A DNA stretch of 64,000 bases from an uncultured Gammaproteobacteria bacterium (lineage in GTDB: Bacteria; Patescibacteriota; Microgenomatia; Levybacterales; UBA12049). Every line of letters starts with the position of its first letter. Position 1 is the first letter of the stretch. Below the pieces are notes generated by a model, which was given only the letters and a program-made list of their open reading frames with translations, did not search any database and had not been told where the DNA came from. Shown here in pieces: positions 34,286 through 57,283 of the stretch. The translations under genes were made by a program, and so were the position numbers. Location: the NCBI GenBank assembly GCA_964637955.1, contig CAZWXQ010000004.1, forward strand, positions 11,368-75,367, written 5' to 3'.

Positions 34286-34359
34286 TACCAGGGGTGGGAG
34301 TCGAACCCACGACCTTAGGTTTATGAATCCTATGCTCTAACCAACTGAGCTACCCTGGC
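34286..34359 (-). tRNA. tRNA with anticodon CAT (Met or lysidine-Ile2). CCA is not encoded.
   Basis: Hand-folded cloverleaf: GCCAGGG / TA / GCTC-AGTTGGTTA-GAGC / TAGGA-TTCATAA-ACCTA / AGGTC / GTGGG-TTCGACT-CCCAC / CCCTGGT-A. G1-U72 wobble. Confidence 0.8.
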
Positions 34360-35114: not shown

Positions 35115-35440
35115 CGCGGGGTAGTGTACAGTGCACGTGAGGCTTAATTTAATGGGCCGTTTTGATAGTAATACCAAAAATGAACTCAGCTATTTCGGTG
35201 AACTCCTAAATTTTATTAAGGACAATACCGAGGGAAGACTCGCTTAGGCGAGAACCCGTAGAGACTACACGCTGGGCTCCTAAGCAATCAAGGATTTATA
35301 CAAAGCTTGCCAAAGGATGAAGATATAGTCCGACACTCTGAGTAATCGGAGATAACAGATAGCATAATCTCACAGGCTAGGCGCAACTCCTAGCCCCGCA
35401 ACAAATTTAATGGAGGCATCAAGCCTCCATTTTCTTTAAT
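35115..35440 (+). ncRNA. Candidate structured non-coding RNA of about 320 nt (class unknown), or a long regulated leader
   Basis: A 450-bp gene-free region carries a consensus promoter, several stable hairpins (ctcgc-ttag-gcgag, ggctagg-cgcaact-cctagcc) and an intrinsic terminator. It may contain a 31-codon small ORF (MGRFDSNTKNELSYFGELLNFIKDNTEGRLA). Confidence 0.35.
35412..35440 (+). terminator. Intrinsic terminator: ggaggc-atcaa-gcctcc followed by a T-run
   Basis: ggaggcatcaagcctccattttcttt on the plus strand. Confidence 0.6.
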
Positions 35441-39511: not shown

Positions 39512-39586
39512 TGGTGGGTTAGGATGGAGTCGGACCATCGACATCTACTTTATAAGAGTAGCGCTCTACCGCTGAGCTACTAACCC
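39512..39586 (-). tRNA. tRNA with anticodon TAT (Ile-UAU). CCA is encoded.
   Basis: GGGTTAG-TA-GCTC-AGCGGTA-GAGC-G-CTACT-CTTATAA-AGTAG-ATGTC-GATGG-TCCGACT-CCATC-CTAACCC-A-CCA. Acceptor, anticodon and T stems are fully paired. The T-loop is unusual (UCCGACU). Confidence 0.7.
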
Positions 39587-40468: not shown

Positions 40469-42433
40469 ATGATTGAAAAAGGTCTTCAACCTATATTTGA
40501 CGCCAATGAAGGCAATGGTTCTTTTGGCAAACCTGGAGGCATATCTGACGACGATAGTTATGGTGCTTATGAAAGAGACAAATCCATACCTATTCCTGTT
40601 GTTGTCGATGAAAGACCAGCGCTTGATAGAATTATTGCAGAACTTGATCAGGAAAGAAGAGGTCGATTTCGTCCGACCTATCCAGTATCTCCAATAGAAG
40701 AACCTAAGATTTTTCCCCCAGACACTAAAGAACCAAAGTACTTAGAAGGGTTTAATTCAGGTATAACAGGAGCAAGATTAAAAGTTGCAGGTGTTGATAT
40801 TGCAAGAACAACGATATTTAATCCCCTATCGAGAAACGAGTATGCAGGTGGGACAGAACTTACCCAGGAAGGTATAGAAAAAATTAAACAGTTTTTAAAA
40901 GACAAGGGCTACAGTAATGATGCGCTTGAATATTTAAGTGAGACAGGGGTTTTTGGAAGTATTTTTGCAAACTTAGTACTTAGAACAGAGTCTAATCAAA
41001 TAATAGAAGCAATAAACAATACTGACTTTAAATCTTCAAAAAGAAATTCCTCCGGTTACTATGACTCTATTGAGCCATATTTAGGCTTCTCATATCAAAA
41101 TGAAGCTATAGATGCAAGCATACCGTCTAGTGATAGCAAAAATGACGATCAAAGAAGATTATCAAGAAAAGGTGCGACCAGACTTTTCAGAATAGGCACA
41201 CCTAGAGTTTTAGAAAACTATAAAGTAGCTGATACGCCTATTGTTATTATCGGAGGAGGACCAGCAGGACTTCTTACTGCAAATGCTTTAGTAGATTTAG
41301 GATTCGCTTCTCATAATATTACAGTTCTAGATAAATCGGGTGATTTTGGTGGAATTTGGAAGCAGAAAAATGTTGCGGGAGGATCCAAGAATAATCCTTT
41401 TGACATTAATTTTAGTGGAATCAGGATTGATGCCGCACCAGGTCCCGGATCTTCAATAAGCATCTTTCTTAGGGATATCGCAAAACGTATGGAAAGAAAT
41501 AATGAAGAGGTAGGAGTAGTAAAAGGAAAGGTTACCAGAATAACACCTGGTGATTTAAATCATACAGTGCATTACATAGATGAATCCGGCACTGAAACAA
41601 CTCTAGAAGCTCCGATTGTAATTAACGCTATCGGAAATGGAAAGCCATTACCTCCAAATAGAGAAGGCTATATGACAACTCCAATTAAAGATGGTCAAGC
41701 AGGAATCAGATGGCAGCAAATAATTACTCCTGAAAAAGCTGAAGAATTTAGCGGCAAAACAGTAGTTTTTGTAGGACTTGGAAATAGTACTGCAGAAATG
41801 ATGCAGCAAATTGAAGATTATAATAAATTAGGATACGGCATAAACTACCGCGTTTTAACACACTACCCCTATGAAGCCATTCAAAATCCAGACTCTTTAG
41901 TTAGAATGCCTGATGGAAGAGAATTTAAAGTATTCAGAGACATAAAAACTCCAAATCTAACTAAATTTGAAGGAGATTTACCTGAAATGAGAACTGTTTA
42001 TGATGCTGCTGTAAGAAAAGGAAGAATAATTTCTGATGTAGTCAATTGGGATGTTAAAGACAAATCAATAGTAGCTAGAACTAAAGACGGCACAGAAATA
42101 ACTATTCCGTTTGCACAGCTTTATACTTTAATTGGCTACAGACAAGATCCTGAAGCTCTTAGAGCCATGGGGATGACAGTGGTTGATGAATATACAGGCG
42201 AGATTGCTTATGATTATGACGGTGAGATTCAAAGAAAGCCAGGAGAAGTTGGAAGGAAAAGAGTGCATCCTGGCTACTTCGGTATCGGAGCAGTTCTTAA
42301 ATCACCTTCAAATCCAAATGCAGAAGTAATACCTGGAATTCAACATAGACTTTATGATTTACTTTTTGGAGTAATTATGAGATCAGCTGAATCTGCTGCA
42401 AGAAAAGAAAAACCTCAGAAAAAAAGACGCTAA
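40469..42433 (+). CDS. FAD/NAD(P)-binding oxidoreductase (flavin-monooxygenase-like, two Rossmann motifs) with an uncharacterised N-terminal extension of about 230 aa
   Basis: IVIIGGGPAGLLTANAL (GxGxxG) and VVFVGLGNSTAEMMQQI (second dinucleotide-binding motif). Confidence 0.55.
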   Translation: MIEKGLQPIFDANEGNGSFGKPGGISDDDSYGAYERDKSIPIPVVVDERPALDRIIAELDQERRGRFRPTYPVSPIEEPKIFPPDTKEPKYLEGFNSGITGARLKVAGVDIARTTIFNPLSRNEYAGGTELTQEGIEKIKQFLKDKGYSNDALEYLSETGVFGSIFANLVLRTESNQIIEAINNTDFKSSKRNSSGYYDSIEPYLGFSYQNEAIDASIPSSDSKNDDQRRLSRKGATRLFRIGTPRVLENYKVADTPIVIIGGGPAGLLTANALVDLGFASHNITVLDKSGDFGGIWKQKNVAGGSKNNPFDINFSGIRIDAAPGPGSSISIFLRDIAKRMERNNEEVGVVKGKVTRITPGDLNHTVHYIDESGTETTLEAPIVINAIGNGKPLPPNREGYMTTPIKDGQAGIRWQQIITPEKAEEFSGKTVVFVGLGNSTAEMMQQIEDYNKLGYGINYRVLTHYPYEAIQNPDSLVRMPDGREFKVFRDIKTPNLTKFEGDLPEMRTVYDAAVRKGRIISDVVNWDVKDKSIVARTKDGTEITIPFAQLYTLIGYRQDPEALRAMGMTVVDEYTGEIAYDYDGEIQRKPGEVGRKRVHPGYFGIGAVLKSPSNPNAEVIPGIQHRLYDLLFGVIMRSAESAARKEKPQKKRR

Positions 42434-44787
42434 AGTTGAGCTCTCTCCCCTATTACCTGCTCAATAACGTTTACGTCTTTTCCATACTTAAGACGAGACA
42501 ATTCTTTAATAAGTTCTGAAACTCTTGGATTCATCGCTGCTTTTTCTGCTGTCATGTCTTTAGTCGTATCAAGAGAAAAAGGCGGAACCGGTTCGCCATT
42601 TACGACTGAGCGCATATAGCAATTGAAGCGATCAATGTTTATAAGATCTGACTCATTAAACGTCGGCTGGAACTCGTGCTGAAGATAATTTGCATCTGTA
42701 ACTCCAACACGAAATGAGGCTAGCGTACCCACATTTCCGAAAATAGCATTCTTAACCTCTTCTTCCATCTGCCCTATAAACTGATTGGCAACAATTAGAT
42801 CAAGACGATATTTTCTAGCCTCTGAAAGAATCTGGGCGAAGTCTGGAGTTGCGAAGTTTTGGAACTCGTCAACATAAAGATAAAAATCTTTTCTTTGATC
42901 CATAGCCATATTCTGTCTACTCATCGCAGCAATTAGAATTTTTGGAACTAGAATAAGACCTAAGAAACTTGAATTTTCTTCTCCAATTTTTCCTTTTGAA
43001 AGATTTATAAGTAAAATTTTCTGATTATCCATAACGTCTCTCATATTAAAAGCTGATTGAGATTGGCCTATGATATTTCTCATGGTTTTGTTAGTAACAA
43101 ATCTTCCAAATTTGGATACGATATAATCCAAAGTTTCAGACTTATGAAAATCTGATGTCTGTGCAATCTGATCTGTCCAATAACGTCTAACGATCGGATC
43201 CTGAACGAGAGGAAGCAAACTTTGAACAAACTTTGAATCAGTAAGAACTCTAACAACCTCAATAAATGTACTTCCAGGCTGATACATAACTGTAAGCATC
43301 GCGTTTCTGATCGCATGCTCAAAACGAGGTCCGATAATGCCAGTTTTATTCGGATCATAAAGCTTATACATAAGCCCAACTATACTGGAAACCACATAAT
43401 GCTTTTCTTCCTCAGTATCTGCCTCGAGCATGTTCACTCCCATTGGCCTAGATGTGTCTGAAGGATCAAACAGAATTACATCCTCTGCTCTTTCCGGTGG
43501 AATTTGTTGCAAAATATCTTCGATTAAATCTCCGTGAGGATCAATTACGCCAACACCCTTTCCATTTTTTATATCCTGATTTATCATTTGCTTAAGAAAC
43601 TCTGTTTTTCCAGTTCCTGTTTTTCCGATGATATACATATGCCTTCTTCTGTCATCGTCCCCAATAAATACTTCTTTGGAAAGTCCTCTATATGAACTCT
43701 TGCCCAGAAACAATCCCTCGGTAGCTATATTTGCAGCCGCAGGAGCACGCTTAGAGTTAACCCAGAAAATGTTTGGGGTTGTGATTGCTTTATTTGGGAA
43801 GTGAAAAAGAGTAGCCAGTTCTTCAGAATTTAAAACTCCGGTGTGTGATTTCTTAGGCATAAATCTGTAAACAAACTCATCCATAAATGCCTTTTTATTT
43901 CTAAGTTTATTTTGAGTAAACTCATTCAAGCCTTCGAACTGAGCAAAATTATGCTCTATATTATTTAAATGTGCCTCTGCAGACTCATGTGTAGTTGAAG
44001 AGACCACAATTCTAATTACAGCATCAAATCCAGGTTTTCCGATTTTACTTTCAATTCCTTCCAGCTCTTTTGGATCAACGGAATATTTTGCGGTTTCAGG
44101 ATTTGATTCATCTTTTTTCGTGTGAGAGATATGTGCTCTCCCTGCTTTTTTCCAATCTGAACCCGCTCCTGTAATTGCAATCTGAATTGCTGCTCCCTCC
44201 CCCTCTGTCATCTTTGCAAGAGTTGAAGTAATAGAGCTCATTGGGTCTGTTGCTAAATCTTTATAAACTTTAAGAGGTTTAAAATTTTCCTCCTTAAGCC
44301 TTAATGAAGCAAAAGCGACATGTGAATTCTGTGCAAAAATATTGTAATCATTTCCAACCACAAATCCCTCTTTAAGAGATTTTTTTTCGCTAACTTCTGT
44401 AATTTCAGCATCAGGATAAGCTCCGTTTATTTGTTTTTCTACGAAATCTTTATATTTATTTGGAGTGGAAACATAGTATCTGATATCTCCTGGCATTCCC
44501 ACAATTTCAAAAGTCATCGTAGGCTCTGCATGCATAAAAGAGAATCTGCCACCACCATGAACTGCAACAAAACTTGAGAATAATTGCTCTGCTGCATCAA
44601 TTTTTATTTCATTATCACGAGGCAAAGCTATTTGAAGAAGAGTAGAATCAAGCGCAGCTTCTTTGCTTACTTTAAATTTATAGTTTTGCATAAAAAAATA
44701 AACAGCAACACTACCCACTACTGCCAGAAGAGCAGAAAAAGTTGCCAAGAAAATTAAGAAAACTATAATAGCTAATATATCTCCCAT
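42430..44787 (-). CDS. Membrane-anchored P-loop ATPase of the FtsK/HerA/VirD4-VirB4 (type IV secretion or DNA-translocation) superfamily
   Basis: N-terminal TM helix. Walker A IIGKTGTGKTEF followed by VIDPHGDL. Walker B LYVDEFQNF. RKYRLDLIVANQ. 785 aa. Confidence 0.6.
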   Translation of the reverse strand: MGDILAIIVFLIFLATFSALLAVVGSVAVYFFMQNYKFKVSKEAALDSTLLQIALPRDNEIKIDAAEQLFSSFVAVHGGGRFSFMHAEPTMTFEIVGMPGDIRYYVSTPNKYKDFVEKQINGAYPDAEITEVSEKKSLKEGFVVGNDYNIFAQNSHVAFASLRLKEENFKPLKVYKDLATDPMSSITSTLAKMTEGEGAAIQIAITGAGSDWKKAGRAHISHTKKDESNPETAKYSVDPKELEGIESKIGKPGFDAVIRIVVSSTTHESAEAHLNNIEHNFAQFEGLNEFTQNKLRNKKAFMDEFVYRFMPKKSHTGVLNSEELATLFHFPNKAITTPNIFWVNSKRAPAAANIATEGLFLGKSSYRGLSKEVFIGDDDRRRHMYIIGKTGTGKTEFLKQMINQDIKNGKGVGVIDPHGDLIEDILQQIPPERAEDVILFDPSDTSRPMGVNMLEADTEEEKHYVVSSIVGLMYKLYDPNKTGIIGPRFEHAIRNAMLTVMYQPGSTFIEVVRVLTDSKFVQSLLPLVQDPIVRRYWTDQIAQTSDFHKSETLDYIVSKFGRFVTNKTMRNIIGQSQSAFNMRDVMDNQKILLINLSKGKIGEENSSFLGLILVPKILIAAMSRQNMAMDQRKDFYLYVDEFQNFATPDFAQILSEARKYRLDLIVANQFIGQMEEEVKNAIFGNVGTLASFRVGVTDANYLQHEFQPTFNESDLINIDRFNCYMRSVVNGEPVPPFSLDTTKDMTAEKAAMNPRVSELIKELSRLKYGKDVNVIEQVIGERAQL

Positions 44788-46753: not shown

Positions 46754-47332
46754 TTATTTTTTCTTCCAGATCTTTTCTTTTTGTTTTTCTTTGAAATTAA
46801 CGAATCTAGCCATCGTAAAAAGAAGATCTGACAAGCGGTTAAGATAGACAATTATTGTATTGTCGATTTCCTCTGTCCTTGCCAAATCTACGATCCTTCT
46901 CTCAGCCCGTCTAGCAATCGTACGCGCAACGTGAAGACTTGCTCCCCCTCTTCCACCGCCTGGCAAAATAAACTGCGTTAAAGGAGGCATTTCAGAAGTT
47001 AATTCATCGATTAATTTCTCTATTTGCTCTGGCCTTGAAGCAATCTGTGGAGCTGGAAGAGTTGAACTAACAGCAAGAGAAGAACCAATCTCCAGTAAAT
47101 CATTTTGGATTTCAATTAATTCTTGAATGACCAATTCCCAATGACCAATTCCTTTTTTTGTTTTTTGGGATTTGGGATTTGGGATTTGTGTAATTGCGAA
47201 ACCAATTGACGAGTTAAGTTCATCAATCGTTCCATAAGTCTCCACTTTTTTATCAGACTTAAGAACTCTTTTGCCATCAAAAAGAGATGTTTTTCCACTG
47301 TCTCCTGTTCTTGTATAAATTGGTTTAGACAT
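46754..47332 (-). CDS. pduO: ATP:cob(I)alamin adenosyltransferase, PduO type
   Basis: N-terminal IYTRTGDSGKTSLFDG is the PduO/MMAB signature. 192 aa, including a repeat-encoded insertion. Confidence 0.85.
   Translation of the reverse strand: MSKPIYTRTGDSGKTSLFDGKRVLKSDKKVETYGTIDELNSSIGFAITQIPNPKSQKTKKGIGHWELVIQELIEIQNDLLEIGSSLAVSSTLPAPQIASRPEQIEKLIDELTSEMPPLTQFILPGGGRGGASLHVARTIARRAERRIVDLARTEEIDNTIIVYLNRLSDLLFTMARFVNFKEKQKEKIWKKK
47129..47186. repeat. Direct 10-mer repeat (gaccaattcc x2) plus GGGATTT x3 heptamer repeat inside the pduO-like coding sequence
   Basis: gaccaattcccaatgaccaattcc ... gggatttgggatttgggattt. Encodes QIPNPKSQKTKKGIGHWELVIQ in the minus-strand gene. Confidence 0.8.
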
Positions 47333-47852
47333 AAAAAAATCGTTTAGAAAATCTTAAAGCGAGCTCATAACTTCCGAAAAATAAACCCACAAATATCAAA
47401 TCTCCCATTATTGTATTCCTAAAAAATGGTATAGCCATGAAATATGCCTGAACCATACCATCTATTGTTTTGGGGTATAAAGATGTTGCATACCAGAAAT
47501 TAAAATTTGTAAGTAGAAAAAAGATTATTGATGAAATAATGGAAGCACCTAAAATACTTGCCGTATTTTTATGATTTCTTAGCCATAGCCCAATAATTCC
47601 TGATATTAAAAAACTAGCATATACGAGAGGCGTACTGGGACTAAATCCTAAAAAAATATCTGAAGCAATCATAGCCAAAATAGGAATAATTAAAGCATAT
47701 TTTTTATTAAAATAAACTCCTCCAAACAAGGCCATAGCGGCTATAGGTGCAATATTTGCTGGATGAGGAATCAATCTTAAAAATGCACCAAACAATATAG
47801 CAATAAATGGAAGAATAAAATATTCAATTTTTAGTAATTTTGAATTTTCCAT
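47325..47852 (-). CDS. Polytopic membrane protein, possible ECF-type or vitamin-transporter S-component (B12 context)
   Basis: 175 aa with about 5-6 TM helices. Lies between the DUF4430-like gene and pduO. Confidence 0.4.
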   Translation of the reverse strand: MENSKLLKIEYFILPFIAILFGAFLRLIPHPANIAPIAAMALFGGVYFNKKYALIIPILAMIASDIFLGFSPSTPLVYASFLISGIIGLWLRNHKNTASILGASIISSIIFFLLTNFNFWYATSLYPKTIDGMVQAYFMAIPFFRNTIMGDLIFVGLFFGSYELALRFSKRFFYV

Positions 47853-48244
47853 TCTATTAAATCTCCTTCCTGAGTCATGTAATCAGCAGGCCCAACCTGG
47901 GATTCTTTTCCATTAACAATAAATGCCCAAAACTCTCTTTTATTTTCATCTGCCTGCCTACCATTAATCGAGGTAACCAAGCCTGATGTTACCTGCTTGA
48001 TAGTTGTTTTTTCTTTGAGAACTTCTAATGCACTTTTGCCTTCAACTCCCTGATACGAAAAACTATTATTCTGAGCTGAAACTGTAGGCCTTGAGCTTAA
48101 TTTTTTATTCTGCTGATTATAAAAAACAAATAAGACACCCCCGGCTAATATAATTAGAATTAAAATAATTAAAAATAATTTATTTCTTTTTCCCATAAAA
48201 AAAACTCCCCGTTTGTCCTGTAAGGACTCTCGAGAAGTCGACAA
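47831..48244 (-). CDS. DUF4430-like (transcobalamin beta-domain-like) small membrane-anchored protein
   Basis: C-terminal FWAFIVNGKESQVGPADYMTQEGDLIEWK fits the DUF4430 pattern (W.y.VNG....G....l..GD.I.W). Immediately downstream of a cobalamin-riboswitch-like leader. Confidence 0.5.
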   Translation of the reverse strand: MSTSRESLQDKRGVFFMGKRNKLFLIILILIILAGGVLFVFYNQQNKKLSSRPTVSAQNNSFSYQGVEGKSALEVLKEKTTIKQVTSGLVTSINGRQADENKREFWAFIVNGKESQVGPADYMTQEGDLIEWKIQNY

Positions 48245-48380
48245 ATAGATCTTGCTCGAGAATAAAATAAGGTGGTTTTCCGACTTTACGGTAGCGGCAC
48301 TGTGTGGGATTTCCAGCTCATCATTATTGATGAGCAGTCACCCGTCTTGCCCAATCCTTATTGCAAATATTTTAGTATCT
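48245..48380 (-). promoter_or_regulatory. Cobalamin (B12) riboswitch candidate in the leader of the DUF4430 / S-component / pduO operon
   Basis: The minus-strand RNA contains GGGCAAGACGGGUGA...GGAAAUCCCACACAGUGCCGCUACCGUAAAG, matching the conserved AGGGAA..GGUG.AA.UCC....C.G..CCCGC.ACUGUAA core. The genomic context is B12-related. Confidence 0.5.
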
Positions 48381-48435
48381 AAATAGTAGGCATTAGAGAC
48401 TTCCAAACATATCTCTAATATCTACTACTCAAACA

Positions 48436-50835
48436 CTAACATTCACTATGTCCACATGAATAGCATTTTCCACAACCTTCTTCGTATACGAAACTGCTAG
48501 TTCCACATTCTGGGCAAATATCCATCGTGTGTGTTTTTGGCTTTGTGTCCATGGTTATTCCCTCCTGAAGTGGAAGCTGTGTAAGAACTGTAATTTCTTC
48601 TTTTTCTTCTATTTGCTCTGAGACAATTGGCGCATCAGCTGGAGCTGAAGCAACTGGTGTTACTACCCCTGGAGCGAGCTTATCCTCCACTACTCCATTT
48701 ACCTTAAATGCATACTGCTTAGCTAGAACCTTGGCAATAGCATCTGGCAGAGATCTAACTCGGTTTTCTCCAAAACCTACACTTCTTGCTCCTCCTATTC
48801 CGGAGAGCTGACTTATAACTTGCCTTATCCTCTCGCGCGGCGGCAGGTTGCCTGCGAGACGAAGGTTTAGAGACACCATGCGACCAAGTGCATCAGCCAT
48901 AGCAGATAAATCTGATCCTGGCTTTCCAATCGTGATAAAGACTTCAAAAGGTTCTCCATTTTGATCGTGATTTAATGTGATATATGTGTCTCCAACTGGA
49001 GTTTGAGTCTTATATGTAACTCCTTCTACCATCATAGGCCTTGGTGCACGAACAATCTCCTTAGGAAGAACTGCAGCTTTAGCTTCCTCTTTTGGTTTTT
49101 CATCAACATGAGAAAGCACACCTTGTCGCGAACCGTCTCTGAAATAAGTAACACCCTTTAATCCGTTATCATAAGCCATCATGTAAAGATTTTTTACATC
49201 TTCTACACTATGTCCATTTGGCGCGTTCACTGTTTTAGAAATAGAAGAATCGATATATTCCTGCGCAATTGCTTGAACCATAACATGCTCTTCTGGAGTC
49301 AGGTCATTTGATGAAGCAAAATAATCTGGCTTTGCTTCCCCTGGATGTTTTTTCTGCCACTCTTCATAAAGCGGGTGGAACATTCTATGCTCCCCTAGCC
49401 TGTCTCGTCTGATAAATTCAAACTCATAAACTGGCTCAACTCCAGATGAAACTCCAGAAATCAAACTTGTAGTTCCGGTTGGAGCAATAGTAAGAAGTAC
49501 GGCATTTCTGATTCCATTTTTGGCAATCCTTGCTTGCAACCATTTCGGAAGATTCTGAATGTGATATCCCTGAAGATATTTTTCTTTATCAAACTTAGGA
49601 AATGCTCCTTTTTCCTTTGCAATATCACTTGAAGCCTCATAAGCATTATTCCTGAGAGTTTCAAAAATTTTCTTAATGGTTTCCTCAGACTCTGGTGCGC
49701 CGTATCTAAGCTTCATCTTAATAAGTGCATCTGCAAGCCCTAAAATGCCTAAACCAGTTCTTCTAATGTCTTTTGCTACCTGCTCATTTTCTTTGAAGAA
49801 ATAATACGTGTCATCTATTACATTATCCAAAAATCTCATTGCGACTTTTACATCCTTACCAAATGAAACGAAGTCAAATTTTTCGTTTTTTACATAGGCT
49901 GCTAGATTCATGGCACCTAGATTGCAAACTGCCCATGCTCCAAGAGGCTGTTCTCCACATGGATTTGTAGCAATAAGTTTTTCAAAATACCAAGTGTTGC
50001 TTCTTTTATTGGATCTTTCGAGGAAGTGAAGGCCTGGCTCAGCACTTCGCCATGCTGCTGTACAAATAAGATCCCATAATTCTTTTGCTTTTACCGTTTT
50101 ATAAACTTTTGTTTTTCTTCCAGCTTTTTTCCAACCAATTAAATCTCCATCCCAATCTTTATCATAATTTGGATCATCTAGATCTGGGTATTCTAGATTC
50201 CAATCAGCATCTGCTTTTACAGCTTCCATGAAAGCATCAGATACACAAACCGAGAGATTTGCGCCATTAATCTTAGTCAAATCTTCTTTTACGGTAATAA
50301 ATTCCTCAACATCAGGATGCCAATCATGAAGCATAAGCATAGTTGCTCCACGGCGGCTTCCACCCTGCTGTACAACATCATGAGTTGCATAAGAGAACAA
50401 GCCAGCCCATGTAACTGGACCTGAAGAAAATCCATTAACTTTCTTTACCCTTGCACCGCGAGGCCTTAGAGAAGATAAATTCAAACCAACTCCACCTGAG
50501 CGAGACTGAATCTCAACTAATTGCTTTAAGGAATCAATTATTCCTTCACGACTATCTTTTGGAGATGGAATAACAAAACAATTAAAATAAGTTACTTGGA
50601 AATCTGTTCCTGCACCTGAGAGAATTCTACCGCCTGGAACGAACTTGAAGTCGCTCATTACATCATAGAATTTTTTCTCCCAAACTCCACGAGCTGTTTT
50701 TCTTTCCTGCTTAGCAATACCCTTAGCTACTCTTCTCCACATTTCTTCTGGAGTTTTTTCCAATGCATTACCTTCTTTATCTTTTAAAGAATATCTGTCT
50801 AAAAATACTTTTTCTCTTACGCCATCAAGTTTCAT
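48436..50835 (-). CDS. nrdJ: Adenosylcobalamin-dependent (class II) ribonucleotide reductase
   Basis: N-terminal VFLDRYSLKDKEGNALEKTPEEMWRRVAKGIA is typical of NrdJ. NPCGEQPL active-site cysteine region. C-terminal Cys4 zinc ribbon. 799 aa. Confidence 0.8.
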   Translation of the reverse strand: MKLDGVREKVFLDRYSLKDKEGNALEKTPEEMWRRVAKGIAKQERKTARGVWEKKFYDVMSDFKFVPGGRILSGAGTDFQVTYFNCFVIPSPKDSREGIIDSLKQLVEIQSRSGGVGLNLSSLRPRGARVKKVNGFSSGPVTWAGLFSYATHDVVQQGGSRRGATMLMLHDWHPDVEEFITVKEDLTKINGANLSVCVSDAFMEAVKADADWNLEYPDLDDPNYDKDWDGDLIGWKKAGRKTKVYKTVKAKELWDLICTAAWRSAEPGLHFLERSNKRSNTWYFEKLIATNPCGEQPLGAWAVCNLGAMNLAAYVKNEKFDFVSFGKDVKVAMRFLDNVIDDTYYFFKENEQVAKDIRRTGLGILGLADALIKMKLRYGAPESEETIKKIFETLRNNAYEASSDIAKEKGAFPKFDKEKYLQGYHIQNLPKWLQARIAKNGIRNAVLLTIAPTGTTSLISGVSSGVEPVYEFEFIRRDRLGEHRMFHPLYEEWQKKHPGEAKPDYFASSNDLTPEEHVMVQAIAQEYIDSSISKTVNAPNGHSVEDVKNLYMMAYDNGLKGVTYFRDGSRQGVLSHVDEKPKEEAKAAVLPKEIVRAPRPMMVEGVTYKTQTPVGDTYITLNHDQNGEPFEVFITIGKPGSDLSAMADALGRMVSLNLRLAGNLPPRERIRQVISQLSGIGGARSVGFGENRVRSLPDAIAKVLAKQYAFKVNGVVEDKLAPGVVTPVASAPADAPIVSEQIEEKEEITVLTQLPLQEGITMDTKPKTHTMDICPECGTSSFVYEEGCGKCYSCGHSEC

Positions 50836-50873: not shown

Positions 50874-51272
50874 CTAATTTACCAATTTCCTTTCCGTTTG
50901 ATTTTCTGCTGATACTACTTCAAGCATAGCTGCTCCCAATTCTTTTTTATTATGATTTAAGCTAAATTTATAATCCCCTTCTGACTCGATAGGAAGTCCT
51001 GCAAGCTCTACTATTAAATTATTTTTGCCATTTTCCCCAGTTGTACTATTTAGATTAAAAGAAGCAATCTCTTTCGTTCCTTTTTTAAAACTTAAATCAA
51101 GTTTATATTCTGTAAATGTTTCTCCACTTATAGTTGCTACAAAAAATGCTCTGACAAGTGTCGTTGGAAAAGTGACAACATTTAATTTGTCAAAAATTCC
51201 ATCAATACTTAGCTTCCCTTCTCGGGATACTGATGCATAGTCTGATAATGTTATTAAATTTACTTTTAACAT
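50874..51272 (-). CDS. Hypothetical protein between nrdR and nrdJ
   Basis: 132-aa ORF. Confidence 0.5.
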   Translation of the reverse strand: MLKVNLITLSDYASVSREGKLSIDGIFDKLNVVTFPTTLVRAFFVATISGETFTEYKLDLSFKKGTKEIASFNLNSTTGENGKNNLIVELAGLPIESEGDYKFSLNHNKKELGAAMLEVVSAENQTERKLVN

Positions 51273-55208: not shown

Positions 55209-56276
55209 TTAAGTTTCCAGAGCTTGGAGTCCTGGGAGCTTTATGCCTGCGAGAAATTCGAGCATGGCTCCACCGCCAACTGAGGCAAAATCAAAATTAT
55301 TTATCAAATTTTTATTTTGAAGAAATCCTATCGTATCCCCTCCTCCAATTACCTTATAAGCTTTTGATTTATTAATAATCTTTGCGATTTCAATAGTGCC
55401 ATGGTCATACCCTTCTTCGATAAATCCCATTGGCCCATTCCAAACCACAGTCGCGCTTTCTTCAATTATTTGAGCAAAATTTTCTATACTATTCTGAGTG
55501 ATATCAAATTTATTAGGAGTCAAATCAGCCACTATTAATATTGCTTTTTGTCCTTTTATTTTTTCGTGAGCTTCATGAGCCAAAACTTTTGTTTGCTCTG
55601 CAATCTCTCCACCTACTAGAACAAAGTCGGCAAATCTATGCATATTTGAAATGAGAGGAAGCTTGGTCTCAATCTTTGCTCCCCCTATTACCATAGTAAG
55701 TGGCCTTTTTGGAGAATTTAATACTTTTGAAAGCACTTTAACCTCTTTCATAAGATGAAATCCACCGTAACCTGGAATAATCTTAGCAACTCCATATGTC
55801 GAGGCATGTGCTCTATGAGAAACTGCAAAAGCTTCGTTTACATAAATCTCTGCTGTAGAAGCCAATTTTTTGGAATATTCATCATTATTTTCTTCCTCAC
55901 CTTTATTAAATCTTATGTTTTCTAAGACAAACAAATTATCACTAAGCCTCCAACCTTCAAAGTCTCCAATCTTGGTGTCTTCAAAGTCTCCATCCGTAAA
56001 CCTATTTGCAAACCACTCAGCTACTATTTTCTGGCTATATTTTTTATCCACGCCATCTGGTCTACCCATATGACCCGCGAGGACAATAATCGCACCCTCA
56101 TGAATTAAAAATTGAATAGTTTCTAGACTTGAAGTAAGCCTTGAGGCGTCTTCGATTTCACCATCAGCAATTGGAACATCAAAATCACAACGCACCAACA
56201 CCTTTTTTCCTTTAACTTTTGCATCACTTATACTTTTAATATTGTATTCCATACTTAATCGGAGAATTCCTGACAA
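55209..56276 (-). CDS. pgk: Phosphoglycerate kinase (short form)
   Basis: KKVLVRCDFDVP (PGK N-terminal signature RxDxNVP), AGHMGRP, GGGAMLEFLAG. 355 aa. Confidence 0.8.
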   Translation of the reverse strand: MSGILRLSMEYNIKSISDAKVKGKKVLVRCDFDVPIADGEIEDASRLTSSLETIQFLIHEGAIIVLAGHMGRPDGVDKKYSQKIVAEWFANRFTDGDFEDTKIGDFEGWRLSDNLFVLENIRFNKGEEENNDEYSKKLASTAEIYVNEAFAVSHRAHASTYGVAKIIPGYGGFHLMKEVKVLSKVLNSPKRPLTMVIGGAKIETKLPLISNMHRFADFVLVGGEIAEQTKVLAHEAHEKIKGQKAILIVADLTPNKFDITQNSIENFAQIIEESATVVWNGPMGFIEEGYDHGTIEIAKIINKSKAYKVIGGGDTIGFLQNKNLINNFDFASVGGGAMLEFLAGIKLPGLQALET

Positions 56277-57283
56277 AACATCTGCCCATAAACTCCCCCA
56301 TCAATTACTCCAACTCCTAATTTTCCAAAGTTTTCAGATAATATATTTGCCTTATGTCCAGGGCTATTCATAAGTCCTTTCATGGCAAGAATCGTAGTTG
56401 GAGCAAGTGCTAGATTTTCACCAGCATAACCAAATTTCACTCCGCCTTCATTCATCCTATCAAATGGAGATTTACCTTCTGGCGTGTAATGTGAGAAATA
56501 GCCACGGGAGAACATGTCTTTACAATGCTTCCTAGCAACTCCCGCAAGTAGTTCATCTGGCTCCAGATTGGAAACTCCGACTTTATTTCTTTCCTTATTT
56601 ACAAGGATTAGCATTTCAGCTTCTGCTTCTTCATCGATTTTGAAATTAGTGGTTGAGAAATTTAGCTTTAAAGACTCCTCACTCTTTGGCTCAACAGTTA
56701 AAAATGTCAGTGCATCATTCACTGCCCCTCCAAAGACATCATTAACTTGCTCATCAAGTCCTTGGATACTCGAGACTAAAGGAGAGCCTAGTTTCGAATC
56801 AAATACTGAATTCTTTAGATATGGAGAAAGAGGAAGAGCAACTACCATAGTAAGAATAAACGCTAAAAGAACAACAGCCGATAAAACTCCAGGAACTATG
56901 CCTGCAAATCTACCAACCTTCTTAGTTATTTCAGATTTCTTAGAATGCTTTGAGAAAAAAGGCAAAATTAAAGTCCTAAATAAAATAGTTAAACAAACTT
57001 CACAAATAAAAGCTGCCAAGAAAAATCCAATCGCGTTACTAAATCCTTTTGGAATATGGAGCACATCTGACAAAAATACCGCAAATATATTGTAAAAGCT
57101 TAATGCAAAGATAAATGATAAAACAAAACTTATGAAATCACTAAGACTTCTCACGAACCCAACTGCATAACCCTCGCATGCATAAATTACGATGATAATG
57201 ACTACCGCAATATCTATGAAATTAAAATTAAATACCGGAATATAGAGAAAATCCAAAAATGCTTGAAAATTTCCAGGCAGCAT
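56255..57283 (-). CDS. CvpA-like membrane domain fused to a CAP/SCP (YkwD-like) extracellular domain
   Basis: N-terminal TM helices (CvpA-like). C-terminal GYFSHYTPEG...GENLA...HKANIL is typical of the CAP domain. Overlaps pgk by 22 nt. Confidence 0.55.
   Translation of the reverse strand: MLPGNFQAFLDFLYIPVFNFNFIDIAVVIIIVIYACEGYAVGFVRSLSDFISFVLSFIFALSFYNIFAVFLSDVLHIPKGFSNAIGFFLAAFICEVCLTILFRTLILPFFSKHSKKSEITKKVGRFAGIVPGVLSAVVLLAFILTMVVALPLSPYLKNSVFDSKLGSPLVSSIQGLDEQVNDVFGGAVNDALTFLTVEPKSEESLKLNFSTTNFKIDEEAEAEMLILVNKERNKVGVSNLEPDELLAGVARKHCKDMFSRGYFSHYTPEGKSPFDRMNEGGVKFGYAGENLALAPTTILAMKGLMNSPGHKANILSENFGKLGVGVIDGGVYGQMFCQEFSD

Follow-up and report, generated by a model that had tools for sequence, protein, structure and literature searches.

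A class-II (AdoCbl-II, RF01689-type) cobalamin riboswitch was very probably found on the minus strand directly downstream of nrdJ in the window (the whole stretch of DNA analysed, 64,000 nt), and it is predicted to switch off a B12-scavenging operon while B12 is abundant. Judged by its sequence, the element is homologous to riboswitches which pass the curated thresholds and is ordinary in kind, and knowledge of how cobalamin riboswitches work is unchanged by the result. It lies in Patescibacteria, a phylum in which regulation is almost unstudied, and the source organism is ultra-small. The preliminary description had placed a cobalamin riboswitch in the leader at 48245-48435, and this was borne out by matches to RF01689 (26.9 bits) and to a lineage covariance model, R1 (48.6 bits, E=1.4e-13). 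The range given there holds the aptamer, but the aptamer starts at 48361, the part from 48435 to 48376 is a separate hairpin, and the element extends to 48197. The coordinates of the features are collected in Table 1.

Table 1. Features of the riboswitch and of the genes around it (positions in the window).
Feature	Position	Strand	Remarks
NrdR	51725-51276	-	Pfam and NCBIfam
DUF6941 protein	50874-51272	-	between nrdR and nrdJ
nrdJ, adenosylcobalamin-dependent class II RNR	48436..50835	-	TIGR02504 590 bits vs cut-off 400; Pfam Ribonuc_red_lgC and TSCPD
60-nt near-perfect hairpin directly after nrdJ stop	48376..48435	-	separate from aptamer; no U-tract after it
Class-II cobalamin aptamer	48267..48361	-	RF01689 and lineage model R1; helices covary in relatives
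Aptamer helices			P1 AUAAGG/CCUUAU, P3 UGG/CCA, P4 GGG/CCC, P5 AGU/GCU, P6 CCG/CGG, J6/3 AAAA
24-nt hairpin in L4 T-loop	48314..48337	-	between UGA (48340-48338) and GAAAU (48313-48309)
L5 UGCCG, predicted kissing-loop partner	48295..48299	-	GCC is the loop, U.G a weak P5 closing pair
P13 hairpin UCU-CGAGCA-AGA, L13 = CGAGCA	48250..48261	-	5 nt after P1 (J1/13 UUUAU, 48266-48262)
Predicted antiterminator 3' strand CUCGAGA	48228..48234	-	pairs with UCUCGAG 48261-48255, i.e. P13 5' strand and first four L13 bases
Predicted terminator / SD-sequestering hairpin	48204..48238	-	ACUUCUCG (48238-48231) : CGGGGAGU (48211-48204); apical stem GUCCU-UAC-AGGAC (48227-48215)
U8 tract	48197..48204	-	directly after hairpin, directly before AUG at 48196
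DUF4430 protein, 121 aa, first regulated gene	47831..48196	-	Pfam PF14478 E=6.6e-14; hydrophobic segment at N-terminus; resembles transcobalamin beta-domain
DUF6580 membrane protein, 175 aa	47325..47852	-	Pfam PF20221 E=1.6e-49; weak ECF_trnsprt match below its cut-off
PduO-type cob(I)alamin adenosyltransferase	46754..47332	-	Pfam PF01923 E=1.7e-56; TIGR00636 186 bits vs cut-off 108
Uncharacterised ORF (ORF438), 438 aa	45435..46751	-	starts 2 nt past PduO stop codon; no Pfam match

RF01689 (AdoCbl-II, the short class-II cobalamin aptamer) was matched at 48361-48267 (-) with E=4e-4 in a permissive Rfam scan of 501 nt (48100-48600), and it was the sole meaningful match there. The match spanned the full model (1-81), with a 29-nt unaligned stretch in L4 and seven positions deleted in J1/3, and it outscored the clan competitor at this site, the overlapping lower-scoring clan match being suppressed. 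Its score lies under the curated gathering score of RF01689, 36.5 bits. No cobalamin family was obtained at gathering thresholds in the whole-window Rfam scan, whose matches were a group I intron and two tRNAs, and RF00174 (class I, with P6 extension/peripheral domain and a model of about 190 nt) had no match at gathering in the window. The best family is therefore RF01689, in place of RF00174 or RF01482 which had been named before. The preliminary description would have been given up if no significant covariance-model score were obtained; on curated models the outcome is equivocal (26.9 against 36.5), while the lineage model supports it. Since the curated Rfam models alone are equivocal, the support comes from comparative data.

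DUF6580 homologues belonged overwhelmingly to Patescibacteria (Levybacteria/Microgenomates), plus Ignavibacteria and Bacteroidota, and 80 loci (designated by L numbers) fetched from species-representative genomes made up the comparison sample. A cobalamin aptamer above the Rfam threshold adjoined the operon in 16 of the first 19 loci, and 13 of these 16 were RF01689. Model R1 was built from 13 RF01689 relatives, with the window excluded and the class-II structure written on the alignment, and in a search space of 663 kb it matched the window aptamer over model positions 1-78 with the score given above. Among the 13 seed aptamers both sides changed in 14 of 20 pairs, with a covariation score of 0.496, compared with 0.19 for shuffled and 0.08-0.17 for slid controls. 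When 71 aptamers were aligned, 85.5% of the cells were paired (61.6% after shuffling), both sides changed in 18/20 pairs, and the covariation score was 0.544 against 0.05-0.15 in slid controls. The resemblance is far beyond chance. The four-way-junction architecture (P1/P3-P4-P5-P6) is backed by covariation and the R1 match.

The closest relative was L081, whose DUF6580 protein was 89% identical and whose leader was near-identical, including the hairpin after nrdJ and the whole expression platform. RF01689 scores of 40.0, 38.1 and 36.8 bits were obtained for L081, L084 and L003, respectively, all above the threshold. R1 gave a second match in the window at 56384-56447 (-) (19.6 bits, E~0.004), which was judged spurious, being without P5 and inside a 342-aa ORF (56255-57283). 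In L006 two class-II aptamers occurred in tandem (2177-2254 and 2319-2411), about 65 nt apart, right after nrdJ and before an ORF438 homologue. The public titles of L001, L004, L008, L009 and others read 'uncultured Gammaproteobacteria bacterium', while their operon and riboswitch were clearly Patescibacteria-like; this is probably a labelling artefact of the assemblies.

On the minus strand the core motifs followed each other in the order GGGUGA, inserted hairpin CUGCUCAUCAAUAAUGAUGAGCUG (48337-48314), GAAAUCCC and CACAGUGCCGCUACCGUAAAGUCGG; the motifs quoted in the preliminary description and its extra inserted hairpin were present as described. L6 consisted of six nucleotides (UAAAGU) with no P6 peripheral extension, which is the distinction of class II from class I (RF00174). 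J1/3 consisted of only AU, and the J1/3 T-loop contacting J6/3, the ligand-selectivity element, was absent. Cbl-II is known to include a subgroup without J1/3 (PMC6158498). Because this selectivity element is absent, the preference among AdoCbl, MeCbl or HyCbl could not be predicted. The window aptamer had an energy of -24.3 kcal/mol in the expected structure, compared with -27.1 kcal/mol for the MFE. The GCC of L5 was invariant among the Patescibacteria aptamers and is complementary to L13.

The most conspicuous departure of the window aptamer was in L4, where the inserted segment folded as an 8-bp hairpin, the whole L4 segment having -11.5 kcal/mol. The P4-L4 module was CGAGG-UUAAAUA-CCUUC in L081 and ACGGG-UGA[24-nt hairpin]GAAAU-CCCAC in the window, where P4 was reduced to three G-C pairs with two mismatches flanking them. 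The insert was absent from the closest relatives L081, L084, L001 and L003. Since the near-identical leader of L081 passes Rfam without it, the shortfall of the window is the cost of the insert and the shortened P4; and as the closest relative has a different module, the change arose recently in evolution. The element would show by example how a real riboswitch can escape the curated Rfam threshold through a lineage-specific insertion.

About eight other aptamers (L048 twice, L031, L015, L058, L052, L061 and a weak one in L002) had unrelated hairpins of roughly 15-26 nt at the same L4 point (UGN-hairpin-AAKU), and 7 of the 9 inserts, counting that of the window, folded as a discrete hairpin. 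One insert-bearing aptamer (L048:3443-3540) passed the Rfam threshold with 37.6 bits. The recurrence of unrelated hairpins and this passing score suggest that the site tolerates insertions. The bases flanking the window insert, UGA...GAAAU, fit the family consensus UGNAAWU, and L6 UAAAGU fits its consensus too, although the L4 loop is interrupted by 24 nt. L4 is the T-loop which docks with L6. The third nucleotide of a T-loop is by definition unstacked (PMC6158498), and the inserts sit after this outward-facing nucleotide, a placement at which the 24-nt hairpin is presumably tolerated. The window copy is likely still to bind cobalamin despite its interrupted T-loop, as far as can be judged from its sequence, and it would be a natural test of how far the T-loop can be interrupted while the tertiary dock is kept.

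The insert was not a mobile repeat, for no second copy was present in the window at up to three mismatches. It contains UGCUC, complementary to GAGCA of L13; decoy pairing of these was treated as a coincidence, the other L4 inserts being without it by inspection. Hairpin insertions into the L6 loop were commoner than those in L4 (roughly 20 aptamers, 16-51 nt). The L6 insert of L001:3449-3546 was flanked by duplicated UAAAGUC, and because of this insertion the aptamer misses the Rfam threshold (33.0 bits). In L018, L021, L051, L004 and L035 the L13 loop was split by one or two hairpins, inserted after CGAG and before CA (CU in L018). These leaders seem prone in general to acquiring hairpins within functional loops.

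The expression platform occupied 48266-48197 (-). P13 alone was unstable (+1.2 kcal/mol), and its stem covaried among the relatives (UCC/GGA, CUUC/GAAG, UCU/AGA, ACC/GGU and others). L13 CGAGCA complements L5 UGCCG with one bulged base, CG(A)GCA, giving a kissing loop predicted at the sequence level, and the L13 consensus CGNGCA does the same when N3 bulges. In cobalamin kissing loops one or more L13 nucleotides are always left unpaired, and L13 must be in a stem-loop (PMC5028336). A strict test (Watson-Crick pairs, one bulge, and an L5-complementary 6-mer in a loop with three or more closing base pairs) succeeded in 33/47 aptamers, compared with 0.25 expected by shuffling (maximum 2). A permissive test with G.U pairs and 1-2-nt bulges was uninformative, as shuffled controls matched in 44/67. 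Both sides were changed in L079 (ACCCG with CGAGGU) and L018 (AGCCG with CGAG..CU), and L007 had CGGUCA with the bulge shifted; since L5 and L13 are both nearly invariant, covariation of the kissing loop rests on these few variant sequences. The GCCACUG B12-box pairing named in the preliminary description was absent, and the predicted regulatory contact is that of L5 with L13.

Downstream of P13, ACUUCUCG has two alternative partners, either the P13 5' strand with L13 (antiterminator) or the SD region CGGGGAGU. The antiterminator complementarity was 7/7, with four nucleotides common to the terminator 5' arm, and compensatory changes were seen in the relatives, e.g. CCCGAG/CUCGGG and UCCGAG/CUCGGA. 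The terminator arms covaried as well (UCCUUCUC/GGGAAGGA in L005, ACUCCUCG/UGAGGAGU in L029). The SD GGGGAG lies at 48210-48205 within the terminator 3' arm, and a GGAG-U6-8-AUG arrangement recurred in most relatives. Fold energies were -6.6 to -11.6 kcal/mol for the antiterminator, -14.8 for the terminator, -39.4 for the full OFF and -37.6 for the full ON structure. The logic of three helices (P13, antiterminator and terminator) was present in 16/33 platforms, the window included, compared with 1.7 (maximum 5) in a control with shuffled P13/L13 7-mer; this test was fold-based, and an earlier heuristic which took U-runs for false terminator arms (6/33) was dropped. A consensus terminator scan did not call the hairpin at 48238-48204, probably because of its internal loop. 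Palindromes near the RBS had been suggested as possible sequestering elements; they are real, being the terminator 5' arm and the apical stem, while the sequestering helix itself would be the pairing between the two arms of the terminator.

When cobalamin is bound, the L5-L13 kissing loop would lock P13, so that the antiterminator is blocked and the terminator/SD-sequestor can form. Transcription would then end in the U8 tract, and the SD would be occluded in whatever full-length mRNA is made. When cobalamin is missing, P13 would melt and the antiterminator could form, so that the operon would be transcribed and translated. We infer that control is dual, transcriptional and translational, as the SD serves as the 3' arm of the predicted terminator and the AUG follows the U-tract directly.

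The lack of a gathering-level Rfam match and the A+U-rich leader with its several palindromes could be read as chance resemblance or generic intergenic hairpins, for example a plain nrdJ terminator region without ligand sensing. This reading is effectively refuted by the score of R1, an independent lineage model, and by the Rfam-passing relatives to whose aptamers the leader is near-identical; the position before DUF4430, conserved in 26 loci, speaks against it too. A recently disabled relic is a more substantial alternative, though we consider it improbable. Here the RNA would descend from a functional class-II riboswitch, but the replaced P4-L4 module would block L4-L6 docking, B12 would not be sensed, and the operon would be constitutively attenuated or read through. 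L4 is described as a highly conserved T-loop directing global folding (PMC6158498), the window score is under the Rfam threshold, and an insert which the closest relatives L081, L084, L001 and L003 do not have is recent and unproven by long-term selection. Against this, UGA...GAAAU of the window fits the consensus better than UUAAAUA of L081 or UUUAAUA of L003, hairpins occur at the same position in other aptamers including one above the threshold, and the rest of the core is intact, together with L5, L13 and the three-helix platform.

For the mode of control, the rival with most weight is regulation of translation only, in which the helix between the terminator arms hides the SD and the eight U are a mere SD-AUG spacer. 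The start codon follows directly after P13 in L024, L009 and L020, in env8 style and without a terminator, the env8 class-II riboswitch is translational (PMC5028336), and the consensus terminator scan gave no site. We regard it as unlikely but worth keeping in mind, for eight U preceded directly by a G+C-containing hairpin of -14.8 kcal/mol are the canonical signature of an intrinsic terminator, the run of U6-8 right after the SD arm is conserved in many relatives, and the two modes are not exclusive. Activating corrinoid riboswitches with the same kissing loop exist (PMC10327014), and an ON switch would let ligand-stabilised P13 sequester CGAG and so alter the pairing downstream, raising expression with B12 in the manner of the activating cobT riboswitch of A. 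halodurans. That is very improbable for the window: P13 competes with the antiterminator rather than the terminator, the P13 5' strand and L13 are complemented by the terminator 5' arm, with which they share no sequence, and the genes under control serve uptake and activation, for which repression by B12 is expected. The OFF switch with dual control is the preferred reading.

The B12 salvage operon adjoining a B12-dependent RNR is well founded on the gene assignments. The gene order expected for the context (nrdR, nrdJ, riboswitch, DUF4430, S-component and PduO) was confirmed by Pfam/NCBIfam matches, the S-component being the CbrT-like DUF6580 protein, and NrdJ and PduO were both above the curated NCBIfam equivalog cut-offs. 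DUF4430 genes were preceded by 26 related aptamers; for the DUF4430 protein the PDB matches were weak, falling on the C-terminal domain of transcobalamin (E 0.2-0.9) or on an uncharacterised protein. The DUF6580 family profile matched a single PDB chain, 6FNP_A (ECF-CbrT), with E=6e-4 over the N-terminal 72 residues, giving a weak hint that this protein is distantly related to the ECF S-component CbrT; BtuM was rejected as a relative, as the profile had no PDB match to it. No ABC ATPase was found in the 64-kb window by a scan for Walker-A and LSGGQ motifs. ORF438 probably closes the regulated operon, and in relatives its homologues are served by a cobalamin riboswitch of their own; the core of its AlphaFold model was confident, with no close structural relative. 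The result flags an uncharacterised protein family repeatedly under cobalamin-riboswitch control, and it supports the view that these reduced-genome bacteria scavenge B12 for class II RNR.

6FNP is the ECF-CbrT cobalamin transporter of Lactobacillus delbrueckii, and cbrT lies in a nrdJ-cbrS-cbrT-pduO cluster of this B12 auxotroph (Santos et al. 2018, PMC5997447). The order of RNR, small accessory protein, S-component-like membrane protein and PduO is alike in the window, whereas the DUF6580 protein is only distantly CbrT-related, an ECF module as well as an ABC ATPase was not seen in the 64-kb window, an uncharacterised 438-aa gene is added after pduO, and the genes for transport are separated from nrdJ by the riboswitch.

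The nrdJ stop codon (48438-48436) was 74 nt from the aptamer, this distance ranging from -9 to 144 nt in the relatives, and the juxtaposition was conserved in 18 loci. No sigma-70-like promoter was found on the minus strand at 48100-48600, where the consensus used may not fit Patescibacteria promoters. Because nrdJ ends so close upstream and no promoter-like site was seen, the switch is probably internal to the nrdJ transcript, acting as an attenuator on a message that starts upstream of nrdJ. With sufficient B12 the terminator would end the nrdJ message, and with short B12 the transcript would read through into the uptake genes. If true, this would couple the expression of a B12-requiring enzyme and its cofactor supply in one mRNA. 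The 60-nt hairpin after nrdJ was part of the MFE fold of the leader (whole leader z=-5.2) and was kept in L081, whose six substitutions (one compensatory) leave the pairing unbroken. It may act in mRNA processing or stability, or be a variant of a terminator.

Only two aspects of the element are mildly unusual, the recurrent hairpin that splits the T-loop and the probable arrangement as an internal attenuator. A bolder combined reading is possible, and we hold it tentatively: the hairpin would be non-neutral and represent a recurrent undescribed sub-type ('P4a') in Patescibacteria, Ignavibacteria and Bacteroidota which is under-called by curated models, the switch would serve as a B12-dependent nrdJ terminator, and the ORF438 family would be an unknown B12-handling protein.

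Compared with the known class-II riboswitch (RF01689 AdoCbl-II or 'AdoCbl-variant'; env8HyCbl, PDB 4FRN/4FRG), the window element has in common the P3-P6 four-way junction in a short aptamer, the 7-nt-type L4 T-loop sequence, a short L6 without P6 peripheral extension, a predicted L5-L13 kissing loop with an unpaired L13 nucleotide, and P13 a few nucleotides after P1. It differs in the 24-nt hairpin splitting L4, the 3-bp P4, the absent J1/3 T-loop and the score below the gathering threshold. The RBS is not in L13 as in env8HyCbl; instead P13 would gate the antiterminator and terminator. The Enterococcus faecalis eut riboswitch (Cbl-II, cited in PMC6158498) also has no identifiable J1/3 T-loop buttressing the binding pocket, but it acts in trans, in an sRNA sequestering a regulator, whereas the window element is predicted to be a cis terminator/SD switch.

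The closest likeness in the platform was with metE of Priestia megaterium, in which the model uniting a kissing loop with P13, an antiterminator and a terminator was validated by mutagenesis (Kennedy et al. 2023, PMC10327014). There a kissing loop (L5 CCG, L13 CGG) likewise steadies a weak P13, and part of the unbound P13 pairs with the terminator 5' arm as antiterminator, giving an OFF switch. The hallmarks of this platform were found in the window, namely a P13 weaker than the antiterminator, four shared nucleotides and a U-tract after the terminator. The antiterminator comes from the 3' side of P13 in metE, whereas it is drawn from the 5' side and the first four L13 bases in the window. The metE aptamer is of class I, and the terminator 3' arm being the SD itself, with the U-tract abutting the AUG, is a further difference of the window. 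The result supports the view that B12 uptake in these reduced-genome bacteria is regulated by the kissing-loop/terminator logic validated in Firmicutes.

Elsewhere in the window, a TrwB/VirD4-like type IV coupling protein was encoded downstream of the operon (42430-44787, -). The group I catalytic intron (RF00028, 71.9 bits) lay at 35135-35352 (+), and the two tRNAs at 34286-34359 (-) and 39515-39586 (-).
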